From a virus (lineage: Duplodnaviria; Heunggongvirae; Uroviricota; Caudoviricetes): DNA of 32,955 nucleotides. The position numbers were made by a program, and so were the translations under genes. The notes below the pieces were generated by a model. That model did not search any database and was not told where the DNA came from. It was given only the letters and a program-made list of their open reading frames with translations. Location of the stretch: the IMG/VR virus record IMGVR_UViG_2617271086_000008, positions 1 to 32,955 of that record, one strand, 5' to 3'. The stretch's first letter is position 1. Each line of letters starts with the position of its first letter. Below are positions 1 to 25,154 of this stretch, in pieces.

Positions 1-984
1 TTATCGAATCGTTAAACCACCCTTTAGTGGGTTTAACGCTACTGCGTTTTGCAGGTAATCAGGCGCAAGGTGCGCATAGGCCATCGTCTGCTGAATGCTC
101 GCATGCCCCAGAATCTGTTGCAGTGCAATTATGTTGCCCCCATTCATCATGAAATGACTTGCGAATGTATGTCGCAGGATATGGGTTGCCTGATTGGGTG
201 GTATATCAGGTTTCACTCTGCGTAAAATCCCGCAAAACTTCTCATAATCAACTTTGAATAATTTGGCACTGGCCTCCTCTTTAACTTTTTTCTCCAGTTC
301 CTCAGAAATCGGCACGGTTCGCTTTTTACCGTTTTTGGTTTTCAGGAAGGTAACCCTGCAATTTGTAATCTGTGCTGGTTTTAGCGTGGCAACTTCCGTC
401 CATCTTCCTCCAGTGCTCAGACATAAAAGCGCGACAAGTAAGTCATCACCAGCCAAAACATTTAACAGTTTTTCGATTTCTGCTTTTTCCAGGAACGTCA
501 TTTCAGGGTTGGCCTCCGTCAGTGGCGGCAGTCCGTGAATTGGGTGTTGCCCGGAAAATTCATCCAGTTGAATTAATTTTGTGAACATGCCGGACAATCG
601 GTATATGTCACGATTTATCGTTGCAGCACTGATGCCATCACGTAGTCGCATGGAGCGATAATCCATCAAAGCCCTTTTGTTCATCCGGCTCACCGGTATA
701 TCACCTATACCGCTGATGGTTTTGAGCAGATGATTAAACTCTTTTGTCCCATGCTCGTGGTTTTGCCCGTGATATTTCCACCAGATGTCGAGCAATTCTG
801 TCAAAGTTCGGCGGTCTGCTCGCTGGCCTGCCCATTCTTTCTGACTGGCATTGGCGATTGTGTATCGCTCAAATGCTACAGCCTCAGCTTTTCTTTCAAA
901 CTTCCTGCGGATGCGTTTTCCGTCGCGACCGCGAGGTCTAATGTCCACTTCATAGCGTCCATCATCGAGCTTCTTAATTGACAT
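1..984 (-). CDS. int: Tyrosine integrase (P2 Int-like)
   Basis: ORF 1..1014; C-terminal catalytic region with HxxR and terminal Y motifs (ATHILRHTFASHF...MAYAHL); likely start at ATG 984 (MSIKKLDDGRYEV, matching the P2 Int N-terminus as recalled) preceded by a GAGGG RBS; stop codon is at window positions 1-3. Confidence 0.9.
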   Translation of the reverse strand: MSIKKLDDGRYEVDIRPRGRDGKRIRRKFERKAEAVAFERYTIANASQKEWAGQRADRRTLTELLDIWWKYHGQNHEHGTKEFNHLLKTISGIGDIPVSRMNKRALMDYRSMRLRDGISAATINRDIYRLSGMFTKLIQLDEFSGQHPIHGLPPLTEANPEMTFLEKAEIEKLLNVLAGDDLLVALLCLSTGGRWTEVATLKPAQITNCRVTFLKTKNGKKRTVPISEELEKKVKEEASAKLFKVDYEKFCGILRRVKPDIPPNQATHILRHTFASHFMMNGGNIIALQQILGHASIQQTMAYAHLAPDYLQNAVALNPLKGGLTIR

Positions 985-1053
985 AAGAAAGCCCTCTGAC
1001 GCTGTATTCACCATCTTGGTAACAAATGGTGAAAATGTAATGTTTATAGAGTG

Positions 1054-1945: not shown

Positions 1946-2442
1946 CAGTGATGACACTTAATCTCGTCGAAAAACAGCCAGCAGCTATGCGCCGGATAAT
2001 TGGTAAGCATCTGGCCGTCCCTCGCTGGCAGGAGACATGTGATTATTATAATCACATGATGGAACGTGAACGGCTAACGGTTTGCTTCCATGCGCAGTTA
2101 AAACAACGTCACGCAACGATGCGTTTCGAAGAAATGAACGATGTCGAACGTGAACGGCTGGTTTGTGCAATTGATGAATTGCGTGGGGCATTCTCAAAAC
2201 GCCGTCAGGTCGGTGCAAGTGAGTATGCATATATTAGTTTTTTAACAGTCAGTCAGCGGCGTACTTTATTTATGCATGCCAGATTGACAGAAAAAGAATT
2301 CAACCAGCCATACTGGCGAATTAATGAAGAATCATGTTACTGGCGTGATGCTTTATTCCGTGCATTACGTGAATTATTCAGTCTGTTTGAGTATGCACCG
2401 ACAATTCTGACATCGGTAAAACCAGAGCAATATCTGCATTAA
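1942..2442 (+). CDS. B: Replication protein B-like
   Basis: 166-aa ORF in the position and of the size of P2 gene B. Confidence 0.65.
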   Translation: MTVMTLNLVEKQPAAMRRIIGKHLAVPRWQETCDYYNHMMERERLTVCFHAQLKQRHATMRFEEMNDVERERLVCAIDELRGAFSKRRQVGASEYAYISFLTVSQRRTLFMHARLTEKEFNQPYWRINEESCYWRDALFRALRELFSLFEYAPTILTSVKPEQYLH

Positions 2443-2505
2443 GTAATTAACCAGAGTTTTTAACGCACTTAATTGTGCGGGGCTTCTTTTTGCCTGGAGA
2501 AAGTC

Positions 2506-2730
2506 ATGCATACAGTTTCTGAAAATCAGTGCGGTAAATACGCATTACTGCTGCAACAGGCCAGAACCGAAGCACAGGCCGACGCAGCGACGCGCTTTTC
2601 TTCTCATCTTGACGCCATGATTCGCCACATCACAAAGGCGGAGTTATCCCGCGTAGAGATAGTCGAGCTGCTCAGTCAGGAGTCGGAAAAATTTCACAAT
2701 ATCGGATTGTCCCGCGGGGAGGTGCTTTGA
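2506..2730 (+). CDS. Hypothetical early protein
   Basis: ATG at 2506 preceded by GGAGAAAG; stop overlaps the next start (TGATG). Confidence 0.4.
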
Positions 2731-3032
2731 TGTCCTGTTCTCGTTCAGTTGTATTACTGAATAACGCCTTAAAAATCACCGTTATGAAAAATGGCGATCT
2801 ATCTCTTATTCAACTTGGTCTTGATAAAGAAAAACGCGAAATAACTGAGTCTGTTATCGCGATTTATCAGAACGAATTAAATCTCCTGTCTGATGTGGTC
2901 AATTTACTTGTTAAACGCGCTGTATTTCACAAGCAAATCTCCTCCGTGAATGAACTGACGAAATTAACGACAGAAATTGCCAGCTATTGCGCTGATGAAT
3001 TTAAAAAACTTAACGACAAAAGGAACTGGTAA
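2730..3032 (+). CDS. Hypothetical early protein
   Basis: ATG at 2730 preceded by GGGGAGGTG; AT-rich; translationally coupled to its neighbours. Confidence 0.4.
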   Translation: MSCSRSVVLLNNALKITVMKNGDLSLIQLGLDKEKREITESVIAIYQNELNLLSDVVNLLVKRAVFHKQISSVNELTKLTTEIASYCADEFKKLNDKRNW

Positions 3033-3256
3033 TGCCGGACAACGTAGATTTTATTCAGGAACAACAGGCTGAATTACTGGAGCGTCAGATTAACGCGGCA
3101 AGGGTAAAACATTGCGGAGCTTCTGCGCTGGTTTGCGAAGAGTGTGACGCGCCAATACCTGCTGCCCGTCGTGCGGCTTATCCGTCAGCCACGCGTTGTG
3201 TTTCCTGCCAGTCAGTCTTTGAAGCAAAAAACAAACATTACCGGAGAACGGCATGA
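3032..3256 (+). CDS. TraR/DksA-family C4 zinc-finger protein
   Basis: 74 aa with two Cys pairs (CEECDAP ... CVSCQ) in a C-terminal arrangement typical of phage TraR/DksA-like zinc fingers. Confidence 0.55.
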   Translation: MPDNVDFIQEQQAELLERQINAARVKHCGASALVCEECDAPIPAARRAAYPSATRCVSCQSVFEAKNKHYRRTA

Positions 3257-3528
3257 GTATTCGTATTGAAATTGGCGAACGTTATGTCGTTACCAGTGAC
3301 AGCTTTCAGTTTATTCTCCACGAGAAAAAGAGAGCGGAAAGCGGTAAAAACGCCGGTCAGGAATGGCTGGCGGTGGTTGGTTATTATCCGAAATTAAGCC
3401 AGCTCGTTTCCGGCCTGATGCATCACGATATTCTGACCGGAAGCGCAAAGTCTTTTGCTGATTTAAACGCGCAGGTTGAGCAACTCAGCAGGCGTTGTTC
3501 AGAGGCTTTTGGCTCATATGGCCGTTAA
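3253..3528 (+). CDS. Hypothetical early protein
   Basis: 91-aa ORF overlapping upstream (ATGA) and downstream genes. Confidence 0.4.
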   Translation: MSIRIEIGERYVVTSDSFQFILHEKKRAESGKNAGQEWLAVVGYYPKLSQLVSGLMHHDILTGSAKSFADLNAQVEQLSRRCSEAFGSYGR

Positions 3529-5803
3529 AGCCTCCGGGCGTTTTGTCCCTCCTTCAGCATTTGCTGCAGGCACCGGTAAGGCGTTTACCGGTGCTTATGC
3601 ATGGAACGCGCCACGCGAGGCCGTCGGGCGCGAAAGACCCCTTACACGTGACGAGATGCGTCAGGTGCAAGGTGTTTTATCCACGATTAACCGCCTGCCT
3701 TACTTTTTGCGCTCGCTGTTTACTTCACGCTATGACTACATCCGGCGCAATAAAAGCCCGGTACACGGGTTTTATTTCCTCACATCCACTTTTCAGCGTC
3801 GTTTATGGCCGCGCATTGAGCGTGTGAATCAGCGCCATGAAATGAACACCGACGCGTCGTTACTGTTTCTGGCAGAGCGTGACCACTATGCGCGCCTGCC
3901 GGGAATGAATGACAAGGAGCTGAAAAAGTTTGCTGCCCGTATCTCATCGCAGCTTTTCATGATGTATGAGGAACTCAGCGATGCCTGGGTGGATGCGCAT
4001 GGCGAAAAAGAATCGCTGTTTACGGATGAGGCGCAGGTTCACCTCTATGGTCATGTTGCTGGCGCTGCACGTGCTTTCAATATTTCCCCTCTCTACTGGA
4101 AAAAATACCGTAAAGGGCAGATGACCACGAGGCAGGCATATTCTGCCATTGCCCGTCTGTTTAACGATGAGTGGTGGACTCATCAGCTTAAAGGCCAGCG
4201 TATGCGCTGGCATGAGGCGTTACTGATTGCTGTCGGGGAGGTCAATAAAGACCGTTCACCTTATGCCAGTAAACATGCTATTCGTGATGTGCGTACGCGC
4301 CGTCAGGCAAATCTGGAATTTCTTAAATCGTGTGACCTTGAAAACAGGGAAACCGGCGAACGCATCGACCTTATCAGTAAGGTGATGGGCAGTATTTCTA
4401 ATCCTGAAATTCGCCGGATGGAGCTGATGAACACCATTGCCGGTATTGAGCGTTACGCCGCCGCAGAGGGTGATGTGGGGATGTTTATCACGCTGACCGC
4501 GCCGTCAAAGTATCATCCGACACGTCAGGTCGGAAAAGGCGAAAGTAAAACCGTCCAGCTTAATCACGGCTGGAATGATGAGGCATTTAATCCGAAGGAT
4601 GCGCAGCGTTATCTCTGCCGTATCTGGAGCCTGATGCGCACGGCATTCAAGGATAATGATTTACAGGTCTACGGTTTGCGAGTCGTCGAGCCACACCACG
4701 ACGGAACGCCGCACTGGCATATGATGCTTTTTTGTAATCCACGCCAGCGTAACCAGATTATCGAAATCATGCGTCGCTATGCGCTCAAAGAGGATGGCGA
4801 CGAAAGAGGAGCTGCGCGAAACCGTTTTCAGGCAAAACACCTTAACCGGGGCGGTGCTGCGGGATATATCGCGAAATACATTTCAAAAAACATCGACGGC
4901 TATGCACTGGATGGTCAGCTCGATAACGATACCGGCAGGCCGCTGAAAGACACTGCTGCGGCTGTTACCGCATGGGCGTCAACGTGGCGCATCCCGCAAT
5001 TTAAAACGGTTGGCCTGCCGACAATGGGGGCTTACCGTGAACTACGTAAGTTGCCTCGCGGCGTCAGCATTGCTGATGAGTTTGACGAACGCGTCGAGGC
5101 TGCACGCGCTGCCGCAGACAGTGGCGATTTTGCGCTGTATATCAGCGCGCAGGGCGGGGCAAATGTCCCGCGCGATTGTCAGACTGTCAGGGTCGCCCGT
5201 AGCCCGTCGGATGACGTTAACGAGTATGAGGAAGAAGTCGAGAGAGTGGTCGGCATTTACGCGCCGCATCTCGGCGCGCGTCATATTCATATCACCAGAA
5301 CGACGGACTGGCGCATTGTGCCGAAAGTTCCGGTCGTTGAGCCTTTGACTTTAAAAAGCGGCATCGCCGCGCCTCGGAGTCCTGTCAATAACTGTGGAAA
5401 GCTCACCGGTGGTGATACTTCGTTACCGGCTCCCACGCCTTCTGAGCACGCCGCAGCAGTGCTTAATCTGGTTGATGACGGTGTTATCGAATGGAATGAC
5501 CCGGAGGTCGTGAGGGCGCTCAGAGGTGCATTAAAACACGAACTGAGAACACCAAATCGTCAGCAGAGAAACGGAAGCCCGTTAAAACCACATGAAATAG
5601 CGCCATCGGCCAGACTGACCCGGTCGGAACGAATGCAAATCACCCGTATCCGCGTTGACCTTGCTCAGAACGGTATCAGGCCTCAGCGATGGGAGCTTGA
5701 GGCGCTGGCGCGTGGCGCGACAGTAAATTATGACGGAATAAAATTCACGTATCCGGTCGCTGATGAGTGGCCGGGGTTCTCAAAAGTAATGGAGTGGACA
5801 TAA
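3518..5803 (+). CDS. A: Replication initiation endonuclease A (rolling-circle initiator)
   Basis: Long ORF; probable start ATG 3518 (MAVKASGRF, as in P2 gpA by recollection); HxH-type metal motif (GTPHWHMMLF) and YISKN/YIAKY tyrosine region. Confidence 0.9.
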   Translation: MAVKASGRFVPPSAFAAGTGKAFTGAYAWNAPREAVGRERPLTRDEMRQVQGVLSTINRLPYFLRSLFTSRYDYIRRNKSPVHGFYFLTSTFQRRLWPRIERVNQRHEMNTDASLLFLAERDHYARLPGMNDKELKKFAARISSQLFMMYEELSDAWVDAHGEKESLFTDEAQVHLYGHVAGAARAFNISPLYWKKYRKGQMTTRQAYSAIARLFNDEWWTHQLKGQRMRWHEALLIAVGEVNKDRSPYASKHAIRDVRTRRQANLEFLKSCDLENRETGERIDLISKVMGSISNPEIRRMELMNTIAGIERYAAAEGDVGMFITLTAPSKYHPTRQVGKGESKTVQLNHGWNDEAFNPKDAQRYLCRIWSLMRTAFKDNDLQVYGLRVVEPHHDGTPHWHMMLFCNPRQRNQIIEIMRRYALKEDGDERGAARNRFQAKHLNRGGAAGYIAKYISKNIDGYALDGQLDNDTGRPLKDTAAAVTAWASTWRIPQFKTVGLPTMGAYRELRKLPRGVSIADEFDERVEAARAAADSGDFALYISAQGGANVPRDCQTVRVARSPSDDVNEYEEEVERVVGIYAPHLGARHIHITRTTDWRIVPKVPVVEPLTLKSGIAAPRSPVNNCGKLTGGDTSLPAPTPSEHAAAVLNLVDDGVIEWNDPEVVRALRGALKHELRTPNRQQRNGSPLKPHEIAPSARLTRSERMQITRIRVDLAQNGIRPQRWELEALARGATVNYDGIKFTYPVADEWPGFSKVMEWT

Positions 5804-6252
5804 TGGCAAAAATTCACGAGGTAAAGCTGCACGCAAAATATTTTGACCTTGTACTGGAAGGAAAGAAACGAGCAGAGTTTCGTAAAAATGACCGTAATTA
5901 TGAGTGCGGGGACACGTTGATTTTGCATGAATGGGGGCAGGGGGTGTATACGGGGCGAAAGGTTGAAACCCGGATAACGGATGTTACTGACCTGTCAGAC
6001 TGGATGGAAGGTTATGTCTTGCTAAGTATTGAGCTGCTTAATACAGGCGCATATGAGATTGTGAACTGGAAAGAACTTAGTGAGCGTGGTCTGGTATTCA
6101 GAATTAATCATGACATTATGCATCAGCTCGGCCTTGCTGTTATGTATGAACCAGAGACGGGGATGTCTGGCGGGGCAATGGTTGCCACGGATGGAGCATG
6201 GAACTATTCAGATGAACAGATGGAGCATGCAAAGCAAAATGGGTGGTTTTGA
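5803..6252 (+). CDS. ASCH/PUA-like (DUF3850-like) protein with C-terminal extension
   Basis: Start ATG overlaps the A stop (TAATG); N-terminus MAKIHEVKLHAKYFDLVLEGKKRAEFRKNDRNYECGDTLILHEW resembles the DUF3850/ASCH fold signature. Confidence 0.55.
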   Translation: MAKIHEVKLHAKYFDLVLEGKKRAEFRKNDRNYECGDTLILHEWGQGVYTGRKVETRITDVTDLSDWMEGYVLLSIELLNTGAYEIVNWKELSERGLVFRINHDIMHQLGLAVMYEPETGMSGGAMVATDGAWNYSDEQMEHAKQNGWF

Positions 6253-6254
6253 AA

Positions 6255-6491
6255 ATGCACAGAATACCGGGTGAGATACCGCTGCATAACACTAAAAATA
6301 TCAAGCTGATGGCCATTGTTCACCGTCTACAACAGATTATGGTCAATGAGAATCTGACGCCCGATGAGCTAGTCGGGTGCGCTGAAATTGTCAGGGATAA
6401 TTACGGACGGTTCAACGATATCAGTCGACCGAAAGTTAAGACATATCAACCATATAATATGCTTAAACAACCACCACGCAGGCTTGAGTAA
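6255..6491 (+). CDS. Hypothetical small protein
   Basis: ATG 6255 overlaps the upstream stop (TGAAAATG); no recognisable motif. Confidence 0.35.
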   Translation: MHRIPGEIPLHNTKNIKLMAIVHRLQQIMVNENLTPDELVGCAEIVRDNYGRFNDISRPKVKTYQPYNMLKQPPRRLE

Positions 6492-6699
6492 ACGCCGCTA
6501 GTGCTGAAACTTGCTTTCTGGGCTAGCGGTGTTGAACAACGAGCGTAGTGAGGCGTTAGTTATGTAAAGTTAAAGTAATTTAAAACAGTATATTAGTGGA
6601 AAGGATGTTGAGAGTATTCGGTTACGAGAGGGAATGGATGTATTTACAGAAATTGTTGGATTAATTGTAGTAAAGCTAGGATAGGATAGGCCTTAGGGC

Positions 6700-6792
6700 T
6701 GGATGTGGGGAGCCTTCTTGTAGTTTGCTAAAACGCTCGAGATTTTTGAAGGATACAGTTATACTCTGCCGGAGGATGAATCGGAGACTAAA
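6700..6792 (+). promoter_or_regulatory. Putative promoter/RBS region for the methyltransferase gene
   Basis: Possible -35 tcgaga, 17-nt spacer, -10 tatact about 6742-6770; GGAG RBS 6 nt upstream of ATG 6793. Confidence 0.3.
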
Positions 6793-7830
6793 ATGGCGGT
6801 AAAAGTTGTTGATCTTTTTTGTGGTGCTGGCGGGCTTACTCATGGCTTAAAGCAAGCCGGATTAGATGTAGTCGCTGGTATTGATATAGAGAGTGCATGC
6901 CGGGTTGCTTATGAAAGTAATAACAGTGCGCTTTTTATTGAAAAAGATATTTCTCTGGTGACCAAAGACGAGCTTAACGATCTTTTTGAAGGTGCGCAGG
7001 TCAGGGTGTTGGCTGGTTGTGCGCCGTGCCAACCTTTTTCAAGGTATACGCAAGGGCGCGATAAGAAAAATGATAAAAAGTGGCCTCTTCTTTATGAATT
7101 TGAACGTTTAATTCGAGGGGTTAATCCAGAGATCGTTACAATGGAAAATGTGCCTGATGTAACGAAGCATTCTGTTTATAGTGACTTCTATAATAGTTTA
7201 GAGGCATTGGGTTATCATGTCTGGGCCGGAAAGGTTGAATGTGTAGATTATGGTGTTCCGCAAAATAGAGTAAGGCATGTATTATTGGCATCTAAATTTG
7301 CGCCGCTTTCATTTGTAAAACCAAAAGTAGAAAAGGCGGTGACGGTAAAAGAATGCATTGGCGGACTTCCTCCATTAAAGGCAGGTCAAACGGATCCTGT
7401 TGATCCTTTACATAAAGCAAGTAAATTAAGTGATATAAATCTAAAACGTATTGCTTGCTCTAAACCAGGAGGGACATGGCGAGACTGGCCAGTAGAGTTG
7501 ATTGCATCATGCCACATAAAGAAAAGTGGGCAAGGTTATGCTAGTGTATACGGACGTATGGATTGGGATAAACCAAGTCCTACAATTACTACGCTATGTT
7601 ATGGTTTTGGAAATGGCAGATTTGGTCATCCAGAGCAAAATCGTGCAATTTCTCTGAGAGAGGCTGCATTGTTGCAAACGTTTCCAAAGGATTACGTTTT
7701 TACTGCACCCAATGAGAAAGTATCTATAAAGAATGTTGGTAGGATGATTGGTAATGCAGTACCGGTAAAACTAGGTGAGGTTATAGGTGAGTCAATTATA
7801 ACTCACCTAAAAGAGCACAATATAGTTTAA
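6793..7830 (+). CDS. DNA (cytosine-5)-methyltransferase
   Basis: Motif I DLFCGAGG, motif IV GCAPCQPFS (catalytic PCQ), motif VI ENV, motif VIII QNRVR, motif X GNAV; AT-rich relative to the phage backbone. Confidence 0.9.
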   Translation: MAVKVVDLFCGAGGLTHGLKQAGLDVVAGIDIESACRVAYESNNSALFIEKDISLVTKDELNDLFEGAQVRVLAGCAPCQPFSRYTQGRDKKNDKKWPLLYEFERLIRGVNPEIVTMENVPDVTKHSVYSDFYNSLEALGYHVWAGKVECVDYGVPQNRVRHVLLASKFAPLSFVKPKVEKAVTVKECIGGLPPLKAGQTDPVDPLHKASKLSDINLKRIACSKPGGTWRDWPVELIASCHIKKSGQGYASVYGRMDWDKPSPTITTLCYGFGNGRFGHPEQNRAISLREAALLQTFPKDYVFTAPNEKVSIKNVGRMIGNAVPVKLGEVIGESIITHLKEHNIV

Positions 7831-8558
7831 GCCTGTAGTCTTGATGATCGTATGTATAAGCGATCATCAAGGTATTTTTGTATGTTTTCTAGTATTTCTT
7901 CTAGGTAATGGAAAACTTCATTTTTAAGAAGTTCAAGGTTGTCAATAGACGTTTCTTGACCCTTGTTTAAAAAGGATTCTGAACCATGTGCCAATGCATT
8001 TCTTGCTTTTTTTATGTTTACTAAATTTCCACCATTATGAGTTTTTGAACGATCTGTTTGATAGGAAAAACCATAGATATTAGCAACATCCCTAATTTTC
8101 TGTGCGTCAACATTTCCCGAAAATAGGGGGTTTTTATCTGCTTGAACTTGTTTTTTGTGTTCCTCTAGCCATTTTTTTAGAACTAGTTTTGCTATATCAC
8201 CTTGTGAAAAATCCATGTCACTCACCATATGATGGTCTAATTTTTTTAAGGCAAGCTTTGTTAAACTTTCGCAAATCTTATCGACACAAAGATCATCGCA
8301 CGAATTAAGTTCATTATGTATGTCTTCAATAGCATTAGATATAGTGGCTTCAATTAAGTTATATAATATAATAAACGCATTGGCTTTAAGGATATGCGTC
8401 ATTTCGATATCGATTTCGCGGTGTTTACATTCGCCTGCTGTGCGATCTTTGTACGAGAAAGTTGGTCTCTCATCAATAATGAATTTAACAAAATTAAAAT
8501 ATTTTTCTATATCTTCTTTTCTTTCAGAAAATAAAATTTTGCTGTTCATAATGACCAC
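7827..8558 (-). CDS. HEPN-like protein (R-x4-HG motif), putative RNase/abortive-infection effector
   Basis: 243 aa; C-terminal motif KARNALAHG (R186-x4-H191-G); probable GTG start at 8558 with a GAGGAG RBS that overlaps the stop of the upstream DUF262 gene. Confidence 0.6.
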   Translation of the reverse strand: MVIMNSKILFSERKEDIEKYFNFVKFIIDERPTFSYKDRTAGECKHREIDIEMTHILKANAFIILYNLIEATISNAIEDIHNELNSCDDLCVDKICESLTKLALKKLDHHMVSDMDFSQGDIAKLVLKKWLEEHKKQVQADKNPLFSGNVDAQKIRDVANIYGFSYQTDRSKTHNGGNLVNIKKARNALAHGSESFLNKGQETSIDNLELLKNEVFHYLEEILENIQKYLDDRLYIRSSRLQA

Positions 8559-8564
8559 GGATAG

Positions 8565-9689
8565 TTACTCCTCACTATCATCTAGAACAGTATCTTCGGT
8601 CTGCACACCTAAAAGTTTGTCTCTTACATATTCAATACGTGCTTTTACTTTAGGTTTTGAGTTTGACGCATCAGATCTTGTATGTTTAATAAACTCTTCT
8701 GAGTTTAACCATTCCTCTACCGGTGTTGGTATTATGTTAGAGTTAGTTTTTAAGGCTAAAGTGGAACCGACAGCTAACGCTTCAAAGCGAATTCTTGGTA
8801 CAGTGTTTGCTGTTGCATTCTTTCTGAAACCATAGGGGAAATGTGTTTTGACAAATTCACACATATCTTGAAATTGTGCAGTTAGTTTTTCTTCTTGCTC
8901 AGGACTAAATGACTCATTTCGTTGGTCAAGATATTGGGTTAAGAAAGTATCAACACTTTTTTCAAAGTTAAGATAGTTATCACAATAGGCAAAATATCTA
9001 AGAACCAATTCTGGATATTCTCCACGACTGATTCTGGCATCGTTTAGAGGGCATATTTCCCTAAACAATGGAAACTCTGATAGTCTATTAACAACATCAA
9101 GAAAAGGCCCATCATTACTGCCCTGTCGTTGCTCCATTGTCGTGAGTTTTATTCCACCTGTATTCAATCGATCGAAAATCTCCCTTCTTGCTTCTTCATC
9201 ACATAATTCAGTGAGTTCAATCATTCGAATAGTTTTTCTATCGAATCTAAGCTTACGTGCAGGTGTGAAGTCAGAGTATTTGAATCCGTTGGCTGAAGTT
9301 AACTTTTTTAATCCAGTAAGGGTAAATTTATCATTTAGAAAATGATAAAGTGTTCTAATCCTCTGGCTACCATCAACGATTTCCAATCGCCCATCGTCAT
9401 TTCCGATATCGGCAACAAATACATATGGGATAGGAATATTTAGCAAAAGCGATTCAATGAATCTTGATTTTTGAACATTGCTCCAAACAAATTCCCTTTG
9501 ATAATCAGGTATGTATAGTTCTGCTTGGTCGGTTTCTAATCCTTTCTGAAATTTGTCAACAATGACACTTACAGGAAACTCTCTAATTTGGTGATCCGTT
9601 ATTTTTTGCATGGATTTGATCTGGTTATCCAGGTCAACTTTATCTTCTTCTGTGATCACTTGTTCAGGTTGTCTTGGGACTCTTGCCAT
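8565..9689 (-). CDS. DUF262 (ParB/GmrS-like NTPase) domain protein without HNH/DUF1524
   Basis: Motifs DYQREFVW, IVDGSQRIRT (DGQQR-like) and FDRLNTGGIKL; likely start ATG 9689 with an AAGGAG RBS (ORF extends to 9851). Confidence 0.75.
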   Translation of the reverse strand: MARVPRQPEQVITEEDKVDLDNQIKSMQKITDHQIREFPVSVIVDKFQKGLETDQAELYIPDYQREFVWSNVQKSRFIESLLLNIPIPYVFVADIGNDDGRLEIVDGSQRIRTLYHFLNDKFTLTGLKKLTSANGFKYSDFTPARKLRFDRKTIRMIELTELCDEEARREIFDRLNTGGIKLTTMEQRQGSNDGPFLDVVNRLSEFPLFREICPLNDARISRGEYPELVLRYFAYCDNYLNFEKSVDTFLTQYLDQRNESFSPEQEEKLTAQFQDMCEFVKTHFPYGFRKNATANTVPRIRFEALAVGSTLALKTNSNIIPTPVEEWLNSEEFIKHTRSDASNSKPKVKARIEYVRDKLLGVQTEDTVLDDSEE

Positions 9690-9992
9690 TTGTTTTCTCC
9701 TTATGCTTATTTGCAATAAGTTGCATTTGTTTGCATGCGTAGTTTTATACTGATTTAATCCCACAAGTCCTTTATATGCAAGGGTTAGAGGCTTAAATGC
9801 ACCTGCATTAAAACCGCCTTGTGAAGCGGGCAGGCGAGGCGGGGAAAGCACTGCGCGCTGGCGGTGGTGCTGATTTTATTTTTTCAGCGTCTCAGCGCGT
9901 CGTAATGGCGCTTAGTCTGCCCGTTGAGGCGTTGGTGTGTCTGCGGGGTGTTTTGTGCGGTGGTGAGCGTGTGAGGGCGTGATGACGGGGTG

Positions 9993-10020: not shown

Positions 10021-11055
10021 TCAACCGTTGTCAGTGTCCAGTGAGTAGTTTTTAAAGCGGATGACCTCCTGACCGAGCCAGCCGTTTATTTCCCGAATTC
10101 TGTCCTGTAACGGGATAAGCTCATTGCGGACAAAGACCTTTGCCACTTTCTCAATATCACCCAGCGACCCGACGTTCTCCGGCTTGCCGCCCATCAACTG
10201 AAAAGGGATGCGGTGCGCGTCCAGCAGGTCTGCGGCGCTGGCTTTTTTGATATTAAAAAAATCGTCCTTCGTTGCCACTTCACTGAGCGGGATAATTTTA
10301 ATGCCGTCGGCTTTCCCTTGCGGGGCATAGAGAAACAGATTTTTAAAGTTGTTGCGGCCTTTCGACTTCACCATGTTTTCGCGGAGCATTTCGATATCGT
10401 TGCGATCCTGCACGGCATCAGTGACGTACATGATGTATCCGGCATGTGCGCCGTTTTCGTAATACTTGCGGCGGAACAGCGTGGCCGACTCATTCAGCCA
10501 GGCAGAGTTAAGGGCGCTGAGATATTCCGGCAGGCCGTACAGCTCCTGATTAATATCCGGCTCCAGCAGGTGAAACACGGAGCCGGGCGCGAAGGCTGTC
10601 GGCTCGTTGAAGGACGGCACCCACCAGTAAACATCCTCTTCCACGCCACGGCGGGTATATTTTGCCGGTGAGGTTTCCAGTCTGATGACCTTACCGGTGG
10701 TGCTGTAACGCTTTTCCAGAAACGCATTACCGAACACCAGAAAATCCAGCACAAAACGGCTGAAATCCTGCTGGGAAAGCCACGGATGCGGAATAAACGT
10801 TGAAGCCAGAATATTGCGTTTAACGTAAATCGGCGAGCTGTGATGCACGGCAGCACGCAGGCTTTTTGCCAGACCGGTAAAGCTGACCGGTGGCTCATAC
10901 CATCTGCCGTTACTGATGCACTCGACGTAATCCAGAATGTCACGGCGGTCGAGAACCGGCACCGGCTCGCCAAAGGTGAATGCCTCCATTTTCGGTGCGC
11001 TGGCGGTCATTTTTTTTGCCGCAGGTTGCGGTGTTTTCCCTTTTTTCTTGCTCAT
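10021..11055 (-). CDS. Q: Portal protein
   Basis: 344 aa, size and position of P2 gpQ; transcribed with P. Confidence 0.9.
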   Translation of the reverse strand: MSKKKGKTPQPAAKKMTASAPKMEAFTFGEPVPVLDRRDILDYVECISNGRWYEPPVSFTGLAKSLRAAVHHSSPIYVKRNILASTFIPHPWLSQQDFSRFVLDFLVFGNAFLEKRYSTTGKVIRLETSPAKYTRRGVEEDVYWWVPSFNEPTAFAPGSVFHLLEPDINQELYGLPEYLSALNSAWLNESATLFRRKYYENGAHAGYIMYVTDAVQDRNDIEMLRENMVKSKGRNNFKNLFLYAPQGKADGIKIIPLSEVATKDDFFNIKKASAADLLDAHRIPFQLMGGKPENVGSLGDIEKVAKVFVRNELIPLQDRIREINGWLGQEVIRFKNYSLDTDNG

Positions 11056-21156: not shown

Positions 21157-21760
21157 TTCGCGACTGCTGCCGACTGGCTCATCACCGCTTGAAGTTGCCG
21201 CCGCAAAAGCCTGCGCGGAAATTGAAAAAACGCCGGTCAGTATTCGTGAGCTGTGGAACCCGGATACCTGCCCGGCAAATCTGCTGCCGTGGCTGGCGTG
21301 GTCATTTTCGGTTGACCGCTGGGATGATAAGTGGCCGGAAGCGACAAAACGCGCTGTTATCCGCGATGCGTATTTCATTCACTGTCATAAAGGCACTATA
21401 GGTGCAATCCGGCGTGTGGTGGAGCCGCTCGGCTATCTGATTGAGGTGAGGGAGTGGTGGCAGCTCAACGAGGAGCCGGGGACGTTCCGTATCGTTGTTG
21501 GCGTGCTTGAGCAGGGTATTACCGAAGAAATGTATCAGGAGCTGGAGCGCCTCGTTGCTGATGCAAAACCGGCGAGCCGCCATCTTACGGGACTGGCTAT
21601 CAGTTTAAGTACAACCGGCAACATTTTTGCCGGTGCGGGATGCTATCACGGTGACGCCCTGACGGTTTATCCCTACACCCCGGAGGCCATTATTGTCGGA
21701 GGGGATTATTTCCCGGCCTCGGCCATTCATTTAATTGATAACCTGAGAGTAAACGCATGA
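21149..21760 (+). CDS. I: Baseplate/tail protein I
   Basis: P2 gpI position; exact start uncertain (ORF gives 203 aa). Confidence 0.8.
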   Translation: MSDSRLLPTGSSPLEVAAAKACAEIEKTPVSIRELWNPDTCPANLLPWLAWSFSVDRWDDKWPEATKRAVIRDAYFIHCHKGTIGAIRRVVEPLGYLIEVREWWQLNEEPGTFRIVVGVLEQGITEEMYQELERLVADAKPASRHLTGLAISLSTTGNIFAGAGCYHGDALTVYPYTPEAIIVGGDYFPASAIHLIDNLRVNA

Positions 21761-23052
21761 CAGTGAAATACTACGCCATTCTGACTAATCAGGGCGCAGC
21801 ACGGCTGGCTAACGCGACGATGCTCGGCAGTAAGCTGAATCTGACGCAAATGGCCGTTGGTGATGCGAATGGTGTCTTGCCGACACCAGACCCGGCACAG
21901 ACAAAACTGATTAACCAGAAACGCATCGCGCCGCTGAATCTTCTGAGTGTTGACCCGAACAACCAGAGCCAGATTATTGCGGAGCAAATCATCCCTGAGA
22001 ACGAGGGCGGATTCTGGATCCGTGAGATTGGGCTTTATGATGATGAAGGCGTACTCATTGCGGTGGCGAACTGCCCGGAAACGTACAAACCGCAGTTGCA
22101 GGAAGGCAGTGGTCGTACCCAGACTATCCGCATGATTCTTGTTGTCACGAATACCGAAGCTATCACGCTGAAAATCGACCCGTCGGTGGTACTGGCGACC
22201 CGTAAATACGTGGATGATGAAGTCCTGGAATTAAGGCTGTATGTGGATGACCAGATGAGAAACCACATTGCCGCACAGGATCCTCATACCCAGTATGCGC
22301 AGAAACATAATCCGACATTTACCGGAGAACCAAAAGCGCCGACGCCTGCCGCAGGAAATAACACCACGCGGATTGCGACCACTGCGTTTGTACAGGCCGC
22401 TATTACCGCTCTGATTAACGGTGCGCCTGACACGCTGGACACACTGAAAGAAATTGCCGCGGCCATTAACAATGACCCGAAATTCAGCACCACCATTAAC
22501 AATGCGCTGTCAGGTAAGCAGCCACTGGATGAGACGCTGACTCATTTGAGTGGAAAGGATGTTGCCGGTCTTCTCGCATACCTTGGTTTGGGAGAAACGA
22601 TAAATAAAGCCTCCGGAGCTATGCAGAAATCGGCTAATGGATCTGATATTTCTGATGTATCAGCCTTCCGAAATGCGCTCCAGTTAGGGACCGCTGCAAC
22701 ACGAGATGTTGGAGCAGATAATGCCTCGAAGTTACTGGATTTAGACAGCTTCAGGTCAATGATGTCAGGTAATGGCTACATCTACATTCCATGCATTGCG
22801 ACGACAGGAAACCCGGTGAAACTTATGTTGCAGTGGGGAACGGTGGCAACACAAAAGGGAGCTGATGCTGGATATGCCTTACCATTTGCTTTTCCCTATG
22901 CAGGCTTGTTTGCGACCGGAAACCGTGGAACATCTGGCTACAATGCCGCGATGAATGTGCGTATTGCCAGCAGAACGCATATCAGTATTCAGAACTGGTC
23001 GCCATCCGGAGAGGGCACCGAAGATTGTTGTTTTATCGCGCTGGGGTATTAA
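21757..23052 (+). CDS. H: Tail fibre protein H (constant N-terminus plus currently expressed variable C-terminus)
   Basis: 431 aa; the constant/variable junction at the LGLGE codons coincides with the inversion crossover site. Confidence 0.85.
   Translation: MTVKYYAILTNQGAARLANATMLGSKLNLTQMAVGDANGVLPTPDPAQTKLINQKRIAPLNLLSVDPNNQSQIIAEQIIPENEGGFWIREIGLYDDEGVLIAVANCPETYKPQLQEGSGRTQTIRMILVVTNTEAITLKIDPSVVLATRKYVDDEVLELRLYVDDQMRNHIAAQDPHTQYAQKHNPTFTGEPKAPTPAAGNNTTRIATTAFVQAAITALINGAPDTLDTLKEIAAAINNDPKFSTTINNALSGKQPLDETLTHLSGKDVAGLLAYLGLGETINKASGAMQKSANGSDISDVSAFRNALQLGTAATRDVGADNASKLLDLDSFRSMMSGNGYIYIPCIATTGNPVKLMLQWGTVATQKGADAGYALPFAFPYAGLFATGNRGTSGYNAAMNVRIASRTHISIQNWSPSGEGTEDCCFIALGY
22571..22596. 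repeat. Invertase crossover site (left), inside gene H
   Basis: TTCTCGCATACC-TT-GGTTTGGGAGAA; the 14-bp core ttggtttgggagaa (22583-22596) is the exact reverse complement of 24480-24493. Confidence 0.7.
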
Positions 23053-23054
23053 GA

Positions 23055-23471
23055 ATGAATAAATTTTATAAAGGCTCTTTCTATCCGGAAGCACTAAAAG
23101 AGGTATATATCAGCGCCGGTTCATGGCCTGAAAATGGCGTTGATGTTGATGATGAAACAATGGCAATTTACACAGGCGTAGCGCCACAAGGCAAAACGCT
23201 GGGGGCTGATAAAAATGGTAATCCTGCGTGGATTGATATCCCGCCACTCTCCGCTGAACAACAGATTATTCAGGCTGAACAGAAAAGAACGGTATTGCGT
23301 TCTATGGCTGATAAGGAAATAGTCTGGAGACAGGATGCTTTTGATGCGGAAATCGCGACGGCAGAAGAAACCGCCGCGTTATCTGAATGGAAAAAATACC
23401 GGGTCTTGCTGATGCGCGTTGATACATCAAATCCCGTCTGGCCTACGCCTCCGGGGGAGCAGGCCAATTGA
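23055..23471 (+). CDS. G: Tail fibre assembly protein (current orientation)
   Basis: ATG 23055 immediately after the H stop; 138 aa. Confidence 0.75.
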   Translation: MNKFYKGSFYPEALKEVYISAGSWPENGVDVDDETMAIYTGVAPQGKTLGADKNGNPAWIDIPPLSAEQQIIQAEQKRTVLRSMADKEIVWRQDAFDAEIATAEETAALSEWKKYRVLLMRVDTSNPVWPTPPGEQAN

Positions 23472-24036
23472 TATCCGGCGCGGTGCTGGTATCTGTTGCC
23501 GTCACCGCGTCAATGTAATCCAGCACAGCGTTAAGCCGGGTTGTTTCTGCCTGCGTCAGTTTCCGCCCGGCCTGTAATTTCAGCTGAATCAGACTAATGG
23601 AAGCCATTGCAGCATCAATCAGCGACTGGCGCTGTGCTTCTGCCGCGTCTACTGCGGCGCTATGCTGTGCCTCGGTATCCGTCACCCATTTCTCACCATC
23701 CCATTTATCGTATGGCGTTAACGGTGAAAGCGTGACATAACCGTCTTTGATGGCACCGATATAATCCACTGTAACAGCTGCACCATTTTCTGTTGAGTAA
23801 ACAGTCTCATTGCGATGGTCTTCTTCATGGATCCATCCCTTACCCGTAAATACTGCCACTTTTCCAGGAATGTTTTCGCCCGGGTCAATACCAGTGGAAC
23901 AGGCGGGCATACTTACACCAGTATTAATATATTCATCAGACCAGCCCGTATATTCATACGTTACTTCATCATAATAAAAACAACGCATATCACCCGGCAC
24001 TGTAGCCAGTCCATTTTCATCAAAAACAGGTTTCAT
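23443..24036 (-). CDS. Alternative tail fibre assembly protein (inverted cassette)
   Basis: 197-aa minus-strand ORF inside the invertible segment; 3' end overlaps G convergently. Confidence 0.7.
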   Translation of the reverse strand: MKPVFDENGLATVPGDMRCFYYDEVTYEYTGWSDEYINTGVSMPACSTGIDPGENIPGKVAVFTGKGWIHEEDHRNETVYSTENGAAVTVDYIGAIKDGYVTLSPLTPYDKWDGEKWVTDTEAQHSAAVDAAEAQRQSLIDAAMASISLIQLKLQAGRKLTQAETTRLNAVLDYIDAVTATDTSTAPDINWPAPPEA

Positions 24037-24493
24037 TATTTAGCCCTCACCAGAAAGTTAAATGCGATGTTACGTGGTCTGACGGCAATAAAATTCACAC
24101 CATCACCCACTGAATTACTGGTGTAATGGTATCGAGAGAAACCCGGCTCGTGTGCTGATATTCCATCGTGATTAGCAATCGAATGGCCGGAGCCCTCTGG
24201 ATAATTACCGCCAAATTGCGATAAAGATGTTGCTGCCTGCCAGCTTAATAATGCTCGTCCACTGTCCGCCCCTCGCCCATCATCCCAGATACGAATGAAA
24301 TCACCGCGGGCTTCAGGCAATACCAGCGAAGGAAACACTTTCGCCAGCACAGGGTAATCAGTGGCAGAGAATTTCGCGCCGTTGAACTTCAAAAACACCA
24401 TGCTGGACCAGCTGTCGATTACGGTATCTGGCATTGCGGCGGACGGCCAGAAGAACGGAACGCCAATAGCTGGAACACCTTCTCCCAAACCAA
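24036..24493 (-). other. Promoterless alternative tail-fibre C-terminal cassette (Hv')
   Basis: Minus-strand ORF whose 5' end encodes GLGE at the right crossover site; inversion would fuse it in frame to the H constant region. Confidence 0.7.
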
Positions 24494-24505
24494 CGTTTAA
24501 GAAAA
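24480..24505. repeat. Invertase crossover site (right)
   Basis: TTCTCCCAAACC-AA-CGTTTAAGAAAA; imperfect palindrome of the Hin/Gin half-site type, inverted relative to 22571-22596. Confidence 0.7.
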
Positions 24506-24560
24506 TGCAGAGATTACGGCTAACTGGCATCATCCCCGGTTTTTATTCAGGGGATCCATC

Positions 24561-25154
24561 ATGCTTATTGGCTATGTCCGCGTGTCAACAAATGACCAGA
24601 ATACGGAATTGCAGCGTAACGCGCTGGAGTGCGCAGGATGTGAGCTGATTTTTGAGGATAAAATCAGCGGCACGAAGTCCGACCGACCGGGACTGAAAAA
24701 ACTGCTCAGGACATTATCGGAGGGGGATACACTGGTGGTCTGGAAGCTGGACCGGCTGGGGCGTAGTATGCGGCATCTGGTCATTCTGGTTGAGGAACTG
24801 CGCGAACGCGGCGTTAATTTTCGCAGCCTGACAGATGCTATTGATACCAGCACGCCGATGGGGCGTTTTTTCTTTCATGTGATGGGTGCCCTGGCTGAAA
24901 TGGAGCGAGAACTCATTGTCGAGCGGACACGCGCCGGACTGGAAGCGGCCAGAGCCAAAGGTCGTATTGGTGGCAGACGACCGAAACTCACCGCGAGTGA
25001 GTGGGAGCAGGTCGGACGGTTGCTGGCTGCGGGGGAATCTCGTCAACGTGTAGCGCTGATTTTTGATATTGGCCTGTCCACGCTCTATAAAAAATTCCCC
25101 TCATCAGCGACAAAGAATAAATTGTGTCATCCCTTAGCCAACCGGGACAAATAG
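24561..25154 (+). CDS. Serine DNA invertase (Pin/Gin/Cin/Hin family)
   Basis: N-terminus MLIGYVRVSTNDQ with catalytic Ser; resolvase core (VWKLDRLGRS) and C-terminal HTH; very similar to e14 Pin as recalled. Confidence 0.9.
   Translation: MLIGYVRVSTNDQNTELQRNALECAGCELIFEDKISGTKSDRPGLKKLLRTLSEGDTLVVWKLDRLGRSMRHLVILVEELRERGVNFRSLTDAIDTSTPMGRFFFHVMGALAEMERELIVERTRAGLEAARAKGRIGGRRPKLTASEWEQVGRLLAAGESRQRVALIFDIGLSTLYKKFPSSATKNKLCHPLANRDK

Follow-up and report, generated by a model that had tools for sequence, protein, structure and literature searches.

The window, by which we mean the whole 32,955-nt stretch of viral DNA analysed here (IMG/VR record IMGVR_UViG_2617271086_000008), is a P2-like Escherichia coli prophage. 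Beside cos, between replication gene A and portal gene Q, it carries a 3.3-kb segment of low GC content (33–41%) whose genes are a C5-cytosine DNA methyltransferase (hereafter methylase) and, on the opposite strand, a HEPN protein and a DUF262 protein (Table 1). Homology with ~344 other E. coli P2-like prophages ends at ~6426–6434 and returns at ~9790–9798, in a cos-proximal region matched in ~1600 genomes, and the segment holds 15 of the 35 GATC and 10 of the 15 CTAG sites of the window. Both its position and its variability among otherwise homologous prophages are those of a cargo of the gpA-Q site, a documented P2 defence hotspot whose cargos are overwhelmingly anti-phage systems (PMC9122126; PMC9519451); in another P2, a cdt cargo occupies the same position. 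The trio is flanked on one side by gpA, a DUF3850/ASCH gene and an 82-aa ORF, and on the other by the portal gene. The DUF3850/ASCH gene was considered as a further member of the system and rejected, as it is found in ~344 E. coli prophages whatever their cargo. None of the neighbours belongs to a restriction endonuclease family in Pfam or NCBIfam, in agreement with the original prediction that no classical restriction endonuclease lies adjacent.

Table 1. Positions of the cassette genes, their candidate signals and the flanking landmarks in the window
Feature	Position	Strand	Evidence or remark
P2 replication gene A, left landmark, outside the cassette	3476..5803	+	Pfam Phage_GPA, 1.4e-123
Variable cargo of the P2 gpA-Q hotspot, exactly three genes	6430..9790		Homology breaks, GC dip
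Sigma-70-like promoter candidate, ending 28 nt 5' of the methylase start	6737..6765	+	Consensus scan, 9/12 matches
C5-cytosine DNA methyltransferase, DrmMII-type clade (predicted), 345 aa	6793..7830	+	Pfam, TIGR, PADLOC, motifs
HEPN protein, MAE_28990 family, 240 aa	7827..8549	-	Pfam PF18737, 6.8e-21
Intrinsic-terminator-like hairpin, 14-bp stem and T tract	7838..7873	+	Directly 3' of the methylase stop
DUF262 (ParB/Srx-like NTPase) protein, 374 aa	8565..9689	-	Pfam PF03235, 7.4e-29
P2 portal gene Q, right landmark, outside the cassette	10021..11055	-	RefSeq annotation of the identical locus

The methylase ORF runs intact from an ATG, with a GGAG 6 nt upstream, to a TAA stop, and an identical ORF in E. 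coli 1002W03 is annotated in RefSeq as “DNA cytosine methyltransferase” (WP_000279422.1). It was matched over virtually the full length of Pfam PF00145 (DNA_methylase; profile positions 2–323 of 324, 186.3 bits against a cut-off of 22) and by TIGR00675 (dcm; 128.6 bits against a cut-off of 100.65), and its nearest solved relative by sequence is M.HaeIII (3.5e-20, catalytic core only). Motifs I (F9-C-G-A-G-G14), IV (P78-C79-Q80), VI (E118-N-V120), VIII (Q157-N-R-V-R161), IX (R289-E290) and X (G320-N-A-V-P324) were all located in the translation, with the codon of the catalytic Cys79 at 7027..7029, and show no variation among 19 diverse orthologues. The gene is thus predicted to encode a catalytically complete m5C DNA methyltransferase, as originally proposed. 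The promoter candidate upstream, whose -35 hexamer is overlapped by a CTCGAG at 6736–6741, is weak evidence for a transcription start, since such sites are no commoner in this region than in shuffled sequences. Downstream, the terminator-like hairpin falls within the 3' end of the HEPN ORF.

The HEPN gene shares its last 4 nt with the methylase ORF and has the DUF262 gene upstream of it on the same strand, an arrangement which bears out the earlier description of a methylase converging on a DUF262-HEPN operon. In the HEPN protein, for which a GTG at 8558 is an alternative start with better ribosome-binding-site spacing, the Rx4H motif is intact (R183-N-x-L-A-H188), and residues R183, N184, H188 and G189 are invariant among 59 orthologues. 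This nuclease is probably an RNase. None of the PADLOC families, PD-T4-2_B included, matched it at E ≤ 0.01.

For the DUF262 gene, the program-made ORF of 428 aa (8565..9851) is too long, and the start was moved to the ATG at 9689, which has a ribosome-binding site and matches RefSeq. Pfam recognizes GmrSD_N alone in the encoded protein (residues 55–188), within which the motifs Y63-Q-R65 and D106-G-S-Q-R110 are conserved, DGSQR invariantly so. No DUF1524/HNH nuclease domain was detected by Pfam or in the AlphaFold2 model (pLDDT 79), which shows a helical C-terminal domain. The best PDB fold match to this model is BrxU (7p9k; partial, TMq 0.27), followed by ParB/Noc CTPases and SspE, while sequence comparison of the DUF262 and HEPN proteins with PDB chains returned nothing meaningful. 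Among PADLOC models, NsnA is the best match to the DUF262 protein (5.9e-56), followed by PD-T4-2_A (1.7e-34; residues 61–354 against profile positions 56–356 of 363) and, weakly and over the N-terminal domain, by “REase_II” (2.5e-08). PADLOC-DB 2.0.0 (2023) does not report the trio as a system, and the methylase and DUF262 proteins score in it as single components only.

Conservation of the trio and relatives of the methylase

Conservation of the cassette was assessed in a genomic set of 80 loci anchored on DUF262, of which 74 could be evaluated, from at least nine phyla. An orthologous, full-length methylase (48–82% identity) adjoins the DUF262-HEPN pair in 65 of these 74 loci, in three gene orders: convergent as in the window (38 loci), methylase followed by DUF262 and HEPN (25), or DUF262 and HEPN followed by methylase (2). 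In 27 of the 38 convergent loci the methylase and HEPN genes run into each other at their 3' ends, and other gene orders have the methylase leading the operon, with junctions of 0–4 nt. The remaining nine loci comprise two with a different m5C methylase, two without any methylase, and five within DISARM-like operons beside an Eco57I/MmeI-type adenine methylase (identified by Pfam in one of the five, L027, and by clustering in the other four). Neighbour clustering of the DUF262-HEPN loci recovered the methylase, HEPN and DUF262 families as the only conserved ones; no fourth conserved gene, whether Vsr, C-protein or classical restriction endonuclease, was found by this approach.

The same association was observed in two further sets. 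Among viral contigs with full flanks, 61 of 69 loci carry the orthologous methylase, and the 16 of 5426 complete E. coli genomes that have the cassette, in the form of three alleles, all have the three genes. One E. coli/Shigella allele of the P2 hotspot is present on >750 contigs, and the cassette is also kept in three decayed, IS-flanked P2 prophages of Shigella and E. coli. Divergence of the methylase is correlated with that of DUF262 (Mantel r=0.69) and of HEPN (r=0.64; p=0.001), to which shared host phylogeny could partly contribute. Taken together, the methylase, HEPN and DUF262 genes form a conserved unit that moves horizontally and occurs in numerous bacterial phyla and prophages. There are exceptions: two cyanobacterial loci with full flanks have DUF262-HEPN and no nearby methylase, and the methylase beside DUF262-HEPN is frameshifted in phage P24B2 (G7 to G8) and in Neisseria weixii, a sequencing error being possible for either frameshift. 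Judging from these loci, losing the methylase is not plainly fatal, in contrast to classical Type II restriction-modification (R-M) systems.

By sequence comparison the methylase itself can be placed in the DrmMII clade of DISARM: DrmMII (PDLC02651) is its best PADLOC match, over the full length (6.1e-94), followed by MTase_II (5.3e-90). In metagenomes, members of this clade are found next to DUF262-HEPN (25 loci), the class 1 DISARM genes DrmD/DrmMI (26), or a GHKL ATPase (11) which matches the PADLOC “REase_II” model; one of the 11 GHKL loci lies in the P2 hotspot. DISARM-linked orthologues (54–61% identity) are located directly upstream of DrmD and DrmMI, and only these are accompanied by Vsr and a small HTH gene. 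With partners this varied, the methylase acts like a modification module whose restriction-type partners can be exchanged.

The original prediction held that target specificity cannot be read from the sequence, which strictly is still the case, although the DrmMII affiliation offers a lead. The one characterised class 1 DISARM DrmMII methylates MTCGAK, and a Burkholderia relative, 58% identical to the window methylase and M.HgiDII-like according to its source, bears the legacy name M.HgiDII. A Serratia entry was not present among the best 120 matches of a profile search with the DISARM-linked methylases; hence, with this legacy name as the other pointer, a TCGA-core target is a lead only. Site avoidance was tried as a clue to specificity and rejected: the window contains 7 MTCGAK sites against ~28 expected, but a cassette-free P2 with cdt cargo is depleted alike (6 against 26), and TCGA itself is in line with its Markov expectation. 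Solved structures were similarly set aside, as M.HaeIII, 3g7u, DNMT1 and M.HhaI match the catalytic core and motifs IX–X, and no PDB match over the region between motifs VIII and IX assigns a target site.

A candidate modification arm and its alternatives

Two readings of the methylase had been offered at the outset, an orphan anti-restriction or epigenetic enzyme and the modification arm of an R-M-like system with DUF262-HEPN as restriction arm. Of these the second is now favoured and the first disfavoured, because of the tight linkage seen in three independent locus sets, at least nine phyla and three gene orders, together with correlated divergence. We estimate at roughly 60% the probability that the methylase serves as modification arm in an R-M-like defence system in which DUF262 is the sensor and HEPN the effector, and regard the trio as a real candidate for such a cassette. 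The dependence of DUF262-HEPN on methylation is the part that we infer.

Under the modification-arm reading, the lysogen would probably express the methylase from the gene's own promoter, and the enzyme would mark a short, fixed target in the DNA of host and prophage. A fixed target is suggested by the region between motifs VIII and IX, expected to mediate target recognition, which is the most conserved part of the methylase family (0.59 identity versus 0.51 in the N-terminal core). DUF262, as a ParB-like NTPase with a helical DNA-binding domain, would read the methylation state of DNA, for which GmrSD, BrxU and SspE provide precedents, and would then control the HEPN nuclease, such that unmarked incoming DNA leads to restriction or abortive infection and marked self DNA does not. 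The convergent 3' overlap and the terminator inside the 3' end of HEPN may tie the expression of one arm to that of the other, a feature of many Type II R-M systems. A more specific proposal, which we put forward tentatively, is that of an epigenetic self/non-self system with an RNA-cleavage output in place of DNA cleavage: DUF262 might load onto DNA or scan it for the mark and, where an invader lacks the mark, release the HEPN RNase, which would abort the infection. Carried by phages, the trio would then be a pared-down relative of DISARM and SspE, and DISARM, GHKL-ATPase and DUF262-HEPN systems would have exchanged methylase and effector modules time and again.

The alternative that best withstands the data, although we consider it unlikely, is that the two parts are linked without being dependent: DUF262-HEPN would be autonomous, responding to modification in a Type IV-like manner or to another phage cue, and the methylase would travel with it as a complement, either shielding the DNA of phage and host against DISARM or TCGA-type R-M systems or itself hindering some phages, while DUF262-HEPN would hit the phages that escape through hypermodified DNA. 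In its favour stand BrxU, which complements BREX and, like GmrSD, is a DUF262 enzyme that recognises modified cytosines, and the DrmMII of Serratia DISARM, which alone gave some protection against M13 and T1. It would also accommodate the methylase-less and methylase-frameshifted loci, as well as the DUF262-HEPN pairs embedded in DISARM-like operons (L027, L030, L031, L034 and L072) in the way accessory genes are elsewhere. Against it, ~88% of the DUF262-HEPN loci of this subfamily keep the same methylase clade directly adjacent, in three orders and at least nine phyla, and with no other conserved gene, and a sensor attacking m5C DNA would be self-destructive beside an m5C methylase. PD-T4-2, a DUF262-HEPN pair that is functional in K-12 without a methylase, speaks for autonomy, but is only distantly related to the pair studied here, as judged from its A model scoring well behind NsnA and its HEPN model being unmatched.

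Several properties of characterised systems stand as counterpoints to a modification arm. PD-T4-2, cloned with no methylase, confers protection from T4 on K-12; the characterised DUF262 enzymes GmrSD and BrxU attack modified DNA, the polarity being opposite; and class 1 DISARM, the one characterised setting of a DrmMII associated with that class, shows no autoimmunity when its methylases are removed.

A selfish role, in which the trio would act mainly in post-segregational killing, with a HEPN toxin held in check by methylation, and would stabilise the prophage or its cargo, with defence being secondary, appears improbable. Type II R-M systems do behave as addiction modules, HEPN proteins are common toxins, and the retention of the cassette in heavily decayed, IS-flanked P2 prophages (L086, L087 and L089) would fit; however, the overwhelmingly anti-phage content of the hotspot and the existence of frameshifted methylases beside an intact DUF262-HEPN pair argue against it. 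Addiction and a modification arm are not mutually exclusive.

Finally, an orphan methylase, i.e. an independent hotspot cargo serving anti-restriction or epigenetic regulation beside an unrelated DUF262-HEPN pair, would agree with the lack of an adjacent classical restriction endonuclease, with the location of the gene on the opposite strand with its own promoter-like site and terminator, and with solitary methylases being common in temperate phages, but is close to refuted by the co-occurrence data, given the adjacency in 65/74 genomic loci, 61/69 viral loci and 16/16 E. coli genomes, a cargo segment consisting of only these three genes, their correlated divergences, and gene orders in which the methylase heads the same operon with 0–4 nt junctions.

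Should the methylase indeed mark self DNA for DUF262-HEPN, few methylation-based immune systems that use a non-classical effector would be as small as this 3.3-kb cassette. It would offer a tractable E. coli model of how DUF262/ParB-like NTPases read DNA modification, with bearing on Menshen, Dazbog and PD-T4-2, and would shed light on the sharing of one methylase clade by DISARM, GHKL-ATPase “restriction” proteins and DUF262-HEPN. For the lysogen, the gain would be an m5C methylome and a barrier against unmethylated competitors.

Relation to known systems

A validated system close to the cassette is PD-T4-2 of E. coli ECOR65, a ~1.5-kb two-gene DUF262 and HEPN pair active against T4 and cloned with no methylase (Vassallo et al. 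2022). Both include a DUF262 and HEPN pair from E. coli, and the PD-T4-2_A model matches the DUF262 protein of the window over its full length. The HEPN protein of PD-T4-2 is however reported to be of the RiboL-PSP type, its PD-T4-2_B model has no match here, the DUF262 protein is nearer to NsnA than to PD-T4-2_A, and a conserved methylase is part of the cassette. Menshen (NsnABC) provides the best PADLOC match to the DUF262 protein, which has the NsnA architecture of a ParB-DUF262 domain followed by a helical, DNA-binding C-terminal domain. Linkage to BREX, to Type I or III R-M or to methylase genes is seen in about 28% of Menshen operons, and its authors suggested that DNA lacking modification may be the target of DUF262. 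Unlike Menshen, the cassette has neither the NsnB ABC ATPase nor the NsnC effector, and the partner of DUF262 is a HEPN protein.

With DISARM (class 1 of Serratia sp. SCBI and class 2 of Bacillus), the cassette shares a DrmMII-type methylase and, as proposed, methylation as the mark of self, and DUF262-HEPN pairs also occur inside DISARM-like operons. Yet the core of DISARM (the drmA helicase, the drmB DUF1998 protein and the drmC PLD protein) is absent from the window, as are drmD and drmE, and DUF262-HEPN takes the place of the DrmAB helicase complex as putative effector. SspABCD-SspE, GmrSD and BrxU each include a DUF262 ParB-like NTPase as the probable modification sensor, and SspE works with a host-encoded modification system in the way proposed for the trio. 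In these enzymes, DUF262 is fused to a DUF1524 HNH DNase, whereas in the cassette it is paired with a separate HEPN protein, probably an RNase. The modification also differs, being phosphorothioate for SspABCD-SspE and m5C here, and GmrSD and BrxU lack a cognate methylase and are directed against modified DNA.

In its layout, the cassette resembles convergent Type II R-M systems: a solitary m5C methylase next to a putative nuclease arm, with a 3' overlap, in a compact mobile cassette of P2/P4 hotspots. It differs from these in that no PD-(D/E)XK, HNH or GIY-YIG restriction endonuclease is found in the trio, its target-recognition region is conserved family-wide rather than diversifying, and methylase-defective loci exist with an intact “R” arm.

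The only account of the trio found in the literature is an in-silico note from 2013, and no experimental study of the methylase, HEPN and DUF262 combination was found there. In that work (Anantharaman et al. 2013, Biol Direct 8:15, Table 1), an operon of MAE_28990 HEPN, ParB (DUF262) and a DNA methylase was predicted, and the cassette has these same three components, i.e. a PF18737 HEPN protein with Rx4H, DUF262 and a methylase. The 2013 entry is a one-line neighbourhood note giving no experiments, name or mechanism; new relative to it are the DrmMII-type clade of the methylase, as assigned from sequence, the three gene orders, the carriage by phages and location in the P2 hotspot, and the alternative partners of the methylase.

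Cargo of the gpA-Q hotspot in a P2-like prophage

The window is a P2-like (Peduovirus) prophage of Escherichia coli, and its region of interest is 100% identical to E. coli 1002W03 (NZ_CP147056). Gene order runs from the integrase through C, cox, B, gene A, a DUF3850/ASCH gene and an 82-aa ORF to a low-GC stretch, beyond which lie portal gene Q, then the terminase and late genes, with a chromosomal cation-efflux gene at the far right end. The low-GC stretch (33-41% GC vs ~55% in the backbone) holds exactly three genes, encoding a C5-cytosine methylase, a HEPN protein and a DUF262 protein. Since homology to hundreds of P2-like prophages ends at ~6430 and restarts at ~9790, this trio represents the entire swappable cargo of the hotspot between genes A and Q (gpA-Q), by cos. 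In P2 itself this locus holds tin and old, and it is a known reservoir of anti-phage systems (PMC9122126; PMC9519451).

The DUF3850/ASCH gene, which also carries DUF7415 (5767..6252), and the 82-aa ORF (6243..6491) adjoin gpA on its downstream side and occur in ~344 E. coli complete genomes irrespective of hotspot cargo; they thus belong to the backbone of a P2 sub-lineage, outside the cassette. The P2 backbone is extremely poor in GATC (20 observed vs ~114 expected, z ~ -10) and poor in CTAG (5 vs 49), and the 3.4-kb cassette (6430..9790) holds 15 of the 35 GATC and 10 of the 15 CTAG sites of the window, a concentration that indicates oligonucleotide usage foreign to the phage backbone. The prophage also carries a Gin/Cin/Hin-like invertible host-range switch (21757..25154), in which a 165-aa ORF is probably an alternative fibre C-terminus.

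Features of the prophage and of comparison loci from other genomes, viruses and metagenomes (L-numbers)
Feature	Location	Strand	Remarks
Integrase	1..1014	-	
Replication gene A	3476..5803		Pfam Phage_GPA, 1.4e-123
C5-cytosine methyltransferase	6793..7830	+	345 aa
HEPN protein	7827..8549	-	MAE_28990 family, 240 aa
DUF262 protein	8565..9689	-	GmrSD_N, ParB-like, 374 aa
Portal Q	10021..11055	-	
Tail-fibre gene	21757..23052		Invertible switch region
Tail-fibre-assembly gene	23025..23471	+	Opposite orientation to next
Tail-fibre-assembly gene	23443..24036	-	
165-aa ORF	24036..24533	-	No Pfam match
Serine invertase	24561..25154		Resolvase + HTH_7
G7 tract	L001 3097..3103		Methylase gene 2433..3479
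G8 tract	L002 (phage P24B2) ~4732..4739		Methylase otherwise identical
DISARM-like operon with DUF262-HEPN	L027 1782..11835		Example
DISARM-linked methylase	L104 4956..11025		Example
DISARM-linked methylase	L122 4938..11007		Example
Methylase-GHKL pair	L108 4902..8053		Example, in P2 gpA-Q hotspot

The methylase is complete, as originally predicted: it exceeds curated thresholds (PF00145, 186 bits vs 22; TIGR00675, 128.6 vs 100.65), and its six hallmark motifs (I, F9xGxG; IV, P78-C79-Q80; VI, E118-N-V; VIII, Q157xRxR161; IX, R289-E; X, G320-NAVP) are invariant across orthologues in a 19-sequence alignment. A promoter-like site ends 28 nt 5' of its start codon, and a strong terminator-like hairpin (7838..7873) lies 3' of its stop codon, within the 3' end of the HEPN ORF. 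The proposed convergence on a DUF262-HEPN operon was likewise found, with methylase and HEPN ORFs overlapping by 4 nt, and profile searches of the cargo and neighbour genes (Pfam, NCBIfam, PADLOC) agreed that no classical restriction endonuclease is adjacent.

Linkage of the methylase to DUF262-HEPN and other partners

Linkage was examined in three independent locus sets, namely species genomes, viral/prophage contigs and E. coli complete genomes. A DUF262-anchored search of one representative genome per species (185,579 species) yielded 80 loci from Gamma-, Beta- and Alphaproteobacteria, Bacteroidota, Verrucomicrobiota, Planctomycetota, Acidobacteriota, Cyanobacteria, Myxococcota and a CPR bacterium, with DUF262 followed by a HEPN orthologue in virtually every locus. 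Of the 74 loci whose flanks were long enough, 65 have a full-length methylase orthologue (48-82% identity) directly adjoining; it is convergent, like that of the window, in 38, heads a shared operon with 0-4 nt junctions in 25, and comes last in 2. Two further loci hold a different m5C methylase (Pfam), five lie inside DISARM-like operons, by a 1,400-aa Eco57I/MmeI-type adenine methylase and helicases, and only two, both cyanobacterial (L054, L067), have no methylase within 5 kb. When all neighbour ORFs were clustered, the only conserved families were the methylase, HEPN and DUF262.

Orthologous methylases were also present in 61 of 69 full-flank viral/prophage loci, and three cassette alleles were detected in 16 (4 + 3 + 9) of 5,426 E. 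coli complete genomes, every time with all three genes and in the P2 hotspot. The commonest of these alleles (methylase 71% identical) occurs on >750 contigs in a large protein collection. Pairwise divergence is correlated between the proteins (methylase-DUF262 r=0.69, methylase-HEPN r=0.64, DUF262-HEPN r=0.80; Mantel p=0.001), the methylase being the most conserved (mean identity 0.54, vs 0.51 for DUF262 and 0.32 for HEPN). The methylase/HEPN 3' overlap recurs in 27 of the 38 convergent loci which, together with the terminator in the HEPN 3' end, suggests that the two arms are coupled in transcription, much like those of convergent Type II restriction-modification (R-M) systems.

The commonest E. 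coli allele is intact in three heavily decayed P2 prophages of Shigella/E. coli (L086, L087, L089), located between cpx genes and the cation-efflux gene, with gpA truncated, late genes gone and IS630-family transposases flanking. In the DISARM-like operons (L027, assigned by Pfam; L030, L031, L034 and L072, by clustering), DUF262-HEPN lacks an m5C methylase and is flanked by the 1,400-aa adenine methylase and a helicase-containing protein of 1,340 aa, an arrangement reminiscent of accessory genes embedded within other defence systems. The Moraxella catarrhalis phages Mcat28 (KR093652.1) and Mcat31 (KR093655.1) carry full-length DUF262 homologues (44.5% identity), and in T4-like coliphages (RB49, Phi1, GEC-3S and others) there is a short protein that matches DUF262 at residues 61-189 only (37-39% identity).

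Reciprocally, a methylase-anchored search of metagenomes with clade-specific motifs (GNGRFGHP and YGRMxW) recovered this methylase clade (54-63% identity) beside three alternative neighbour types: DUF262-HEPN (25 loci), DISARM class 1 genes with an optional Vsr (26 loci; PADLOC DrmD/DrmA E=0, DrmMI 9e-253), and a ~660-aa GHKL/MORC-type ATPase (HATPase_c_3) scoring 1e-92 against a 'Type II restriction enzyme' model of PADLOC (11 loci). One GHKL pair (L108) lies in the P2 gpA-Q hotspot, so that at least two different partners of the clade circulate in P2-like phages. Methylase identity between the three contexts (~0.54) is the same as among DUF262-linked methylases, and the region between motifs VIII and IX (residues ~170-282), from which target recognition of m5C methylases is read, shows higher identity (0.57-0.60) than the N-terminal catalytic half (~0.51). 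The clade thus behaves as one fixed-specificity modification module recombined with different restriction-type partners, unlike a solitary housekeeping or anti-restriction methylase. Such a shared module also accounts for the best PADLOC match of the window methylase being the DISARM component DrmMII (6.1e-94). Among L103-L165, the methylase immediately precedes the DISARM class 1 genes (optional Vsr, DrmD, DrmMI), and a small HTH_17 gene is often present upstream of it; the GHKL-paired loci include L093, L097, L100, L101, L108, L113, L136 and L157.

As to the target itself, alignments of the methylase with its PDB relatives are confined to the catalytic core plus motifs IX-X. A Burkholderia relative, 58% identical, bears the legacy name 'M.HgiDII', an enzyme that recognises GTCGAC. 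The one characterised class 1 DISARM DrmMII (Serratia sp. SCBI) methylates MTCGAK, and both point to a TCGA core, which we regard as a lead only. Site avoidance was discarded as a clue, MTCGAK depletion being also seen in a P2 phage with unrelated cargo. Three of the seven window MTCGAK sites fall in the cassette (6736..6741, 8409..8414, 9167..9172), and the CTCGAG at 6736 shares bases with the -35 hexamer of the promoter predicted for the methylase; purely speculatively, a methylase targeting MTCGAK might be autoregulated there in a methylation-dependent manner.

A candidate mechanism and its rivals

Catalytic signatures are kept in all three proteins, with HEPN R183-N-x-L-A-H188 and DUF262 Y63-Q-R and D106-G-S-Q-R110 invariant or nearly so across 59 orthologues. 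No DUF1524/HNH domain was found in the DUF262 protein, whose AlphaFold2 model (pLDDT 79) best matches BrxU, followed by ParB/Noc CTPases and SspE. In the mechanism we propose, the methylase would mark host and prophage DNA, DUF262 would read this mark, by analogy with the modification-sensing DUF262 domains of GmrSD, BrxU and SspE, and the effector released on unmarked invading DNA would be the HEPN nuclease, which, like the majority of HEPN families, is most likely an RNase. The Menshen study speculated that methylases by DUF262 systems might mean that DUF262 targets unmodified DNA.

Several observations nevertheless count against a strictly R-M-like dependence. DUF262-HEPN occurs without a methylase in the two cyanobacterial loci, and remains intact beside frameshifted methylases in Neisseria weixii (L014 7873..8885; C4 to C3, GCCCCA to GCCCA) and in the isolated phage P24B2. 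In the latter, a 75%-identity allele, the frameshift is a one-base insertion (G7 to G8) in the homopolymer encoding P-G-G (residues 225-227), and could reflect phase variation, real pseudogenisation or sequencing error; the tract is interrupted in the window allele (CCAGGAGGG). The reverse decay is also seen, with the methylase intact and DUF262 (Marinobacter, L035) or both DUF262 and HEPN (a cyanobacterial MAG, L043) interrupted. Moreover, the validated DUF262+HEPN system PD-T4-2 of ECOR65 protects K-12 when cloned on 1.8 kb without a methylase (PMC9519451), and class 1 DISARM of Serratia tolerates removal of both its methylases without autoimmunity. Together, these cases suggest that methylation may tune the effector without being a strict gate. 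They also leave some room for a DUF262-HEPN defence that acts autonomously and is regularly accompanied by a complementary methylase, although we consider this unlikely. Of the two roles originally predicted for the methylase, co-occurrence with DUF262-HEPN favours the modification arm of an R-M-like system, and brings the other, a pure orphan methylase, close to exclusion.

Relation to known systems

A literature search found no experimental work on the methylase/HEPN/DUF262 trio, and PADLOC-DB 2.0.0 has no model for this HEPN, the methylase and DUF262 scoring as isolated components only. The finding is real, and its better-supported reading, the modification arm, is the more interesting one and directly testable in E. 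coli. The trio lacks the drmABC genes of DISARM, the NsnB and NsnC of Menshen, the DUF1524 of GmrSD-type enzymes and the endonuclease of classical Type II R-M, and differs from PD-T4-2 in a HEPN protein that does not match that system's model and in having a methylase. It does belong to the predicted MAE_28990 operon and to P2-hotspot cargo, and on this combination we class it as a methylation-coupled defence that is not categorically new. Its closest logical precedent is SspABCD-SspE, which joins a host modification system to a DUF262 sensor-nuclease, whereas here a distinct HEPN protein supplies the nuclease and m5C would serve as the mark.
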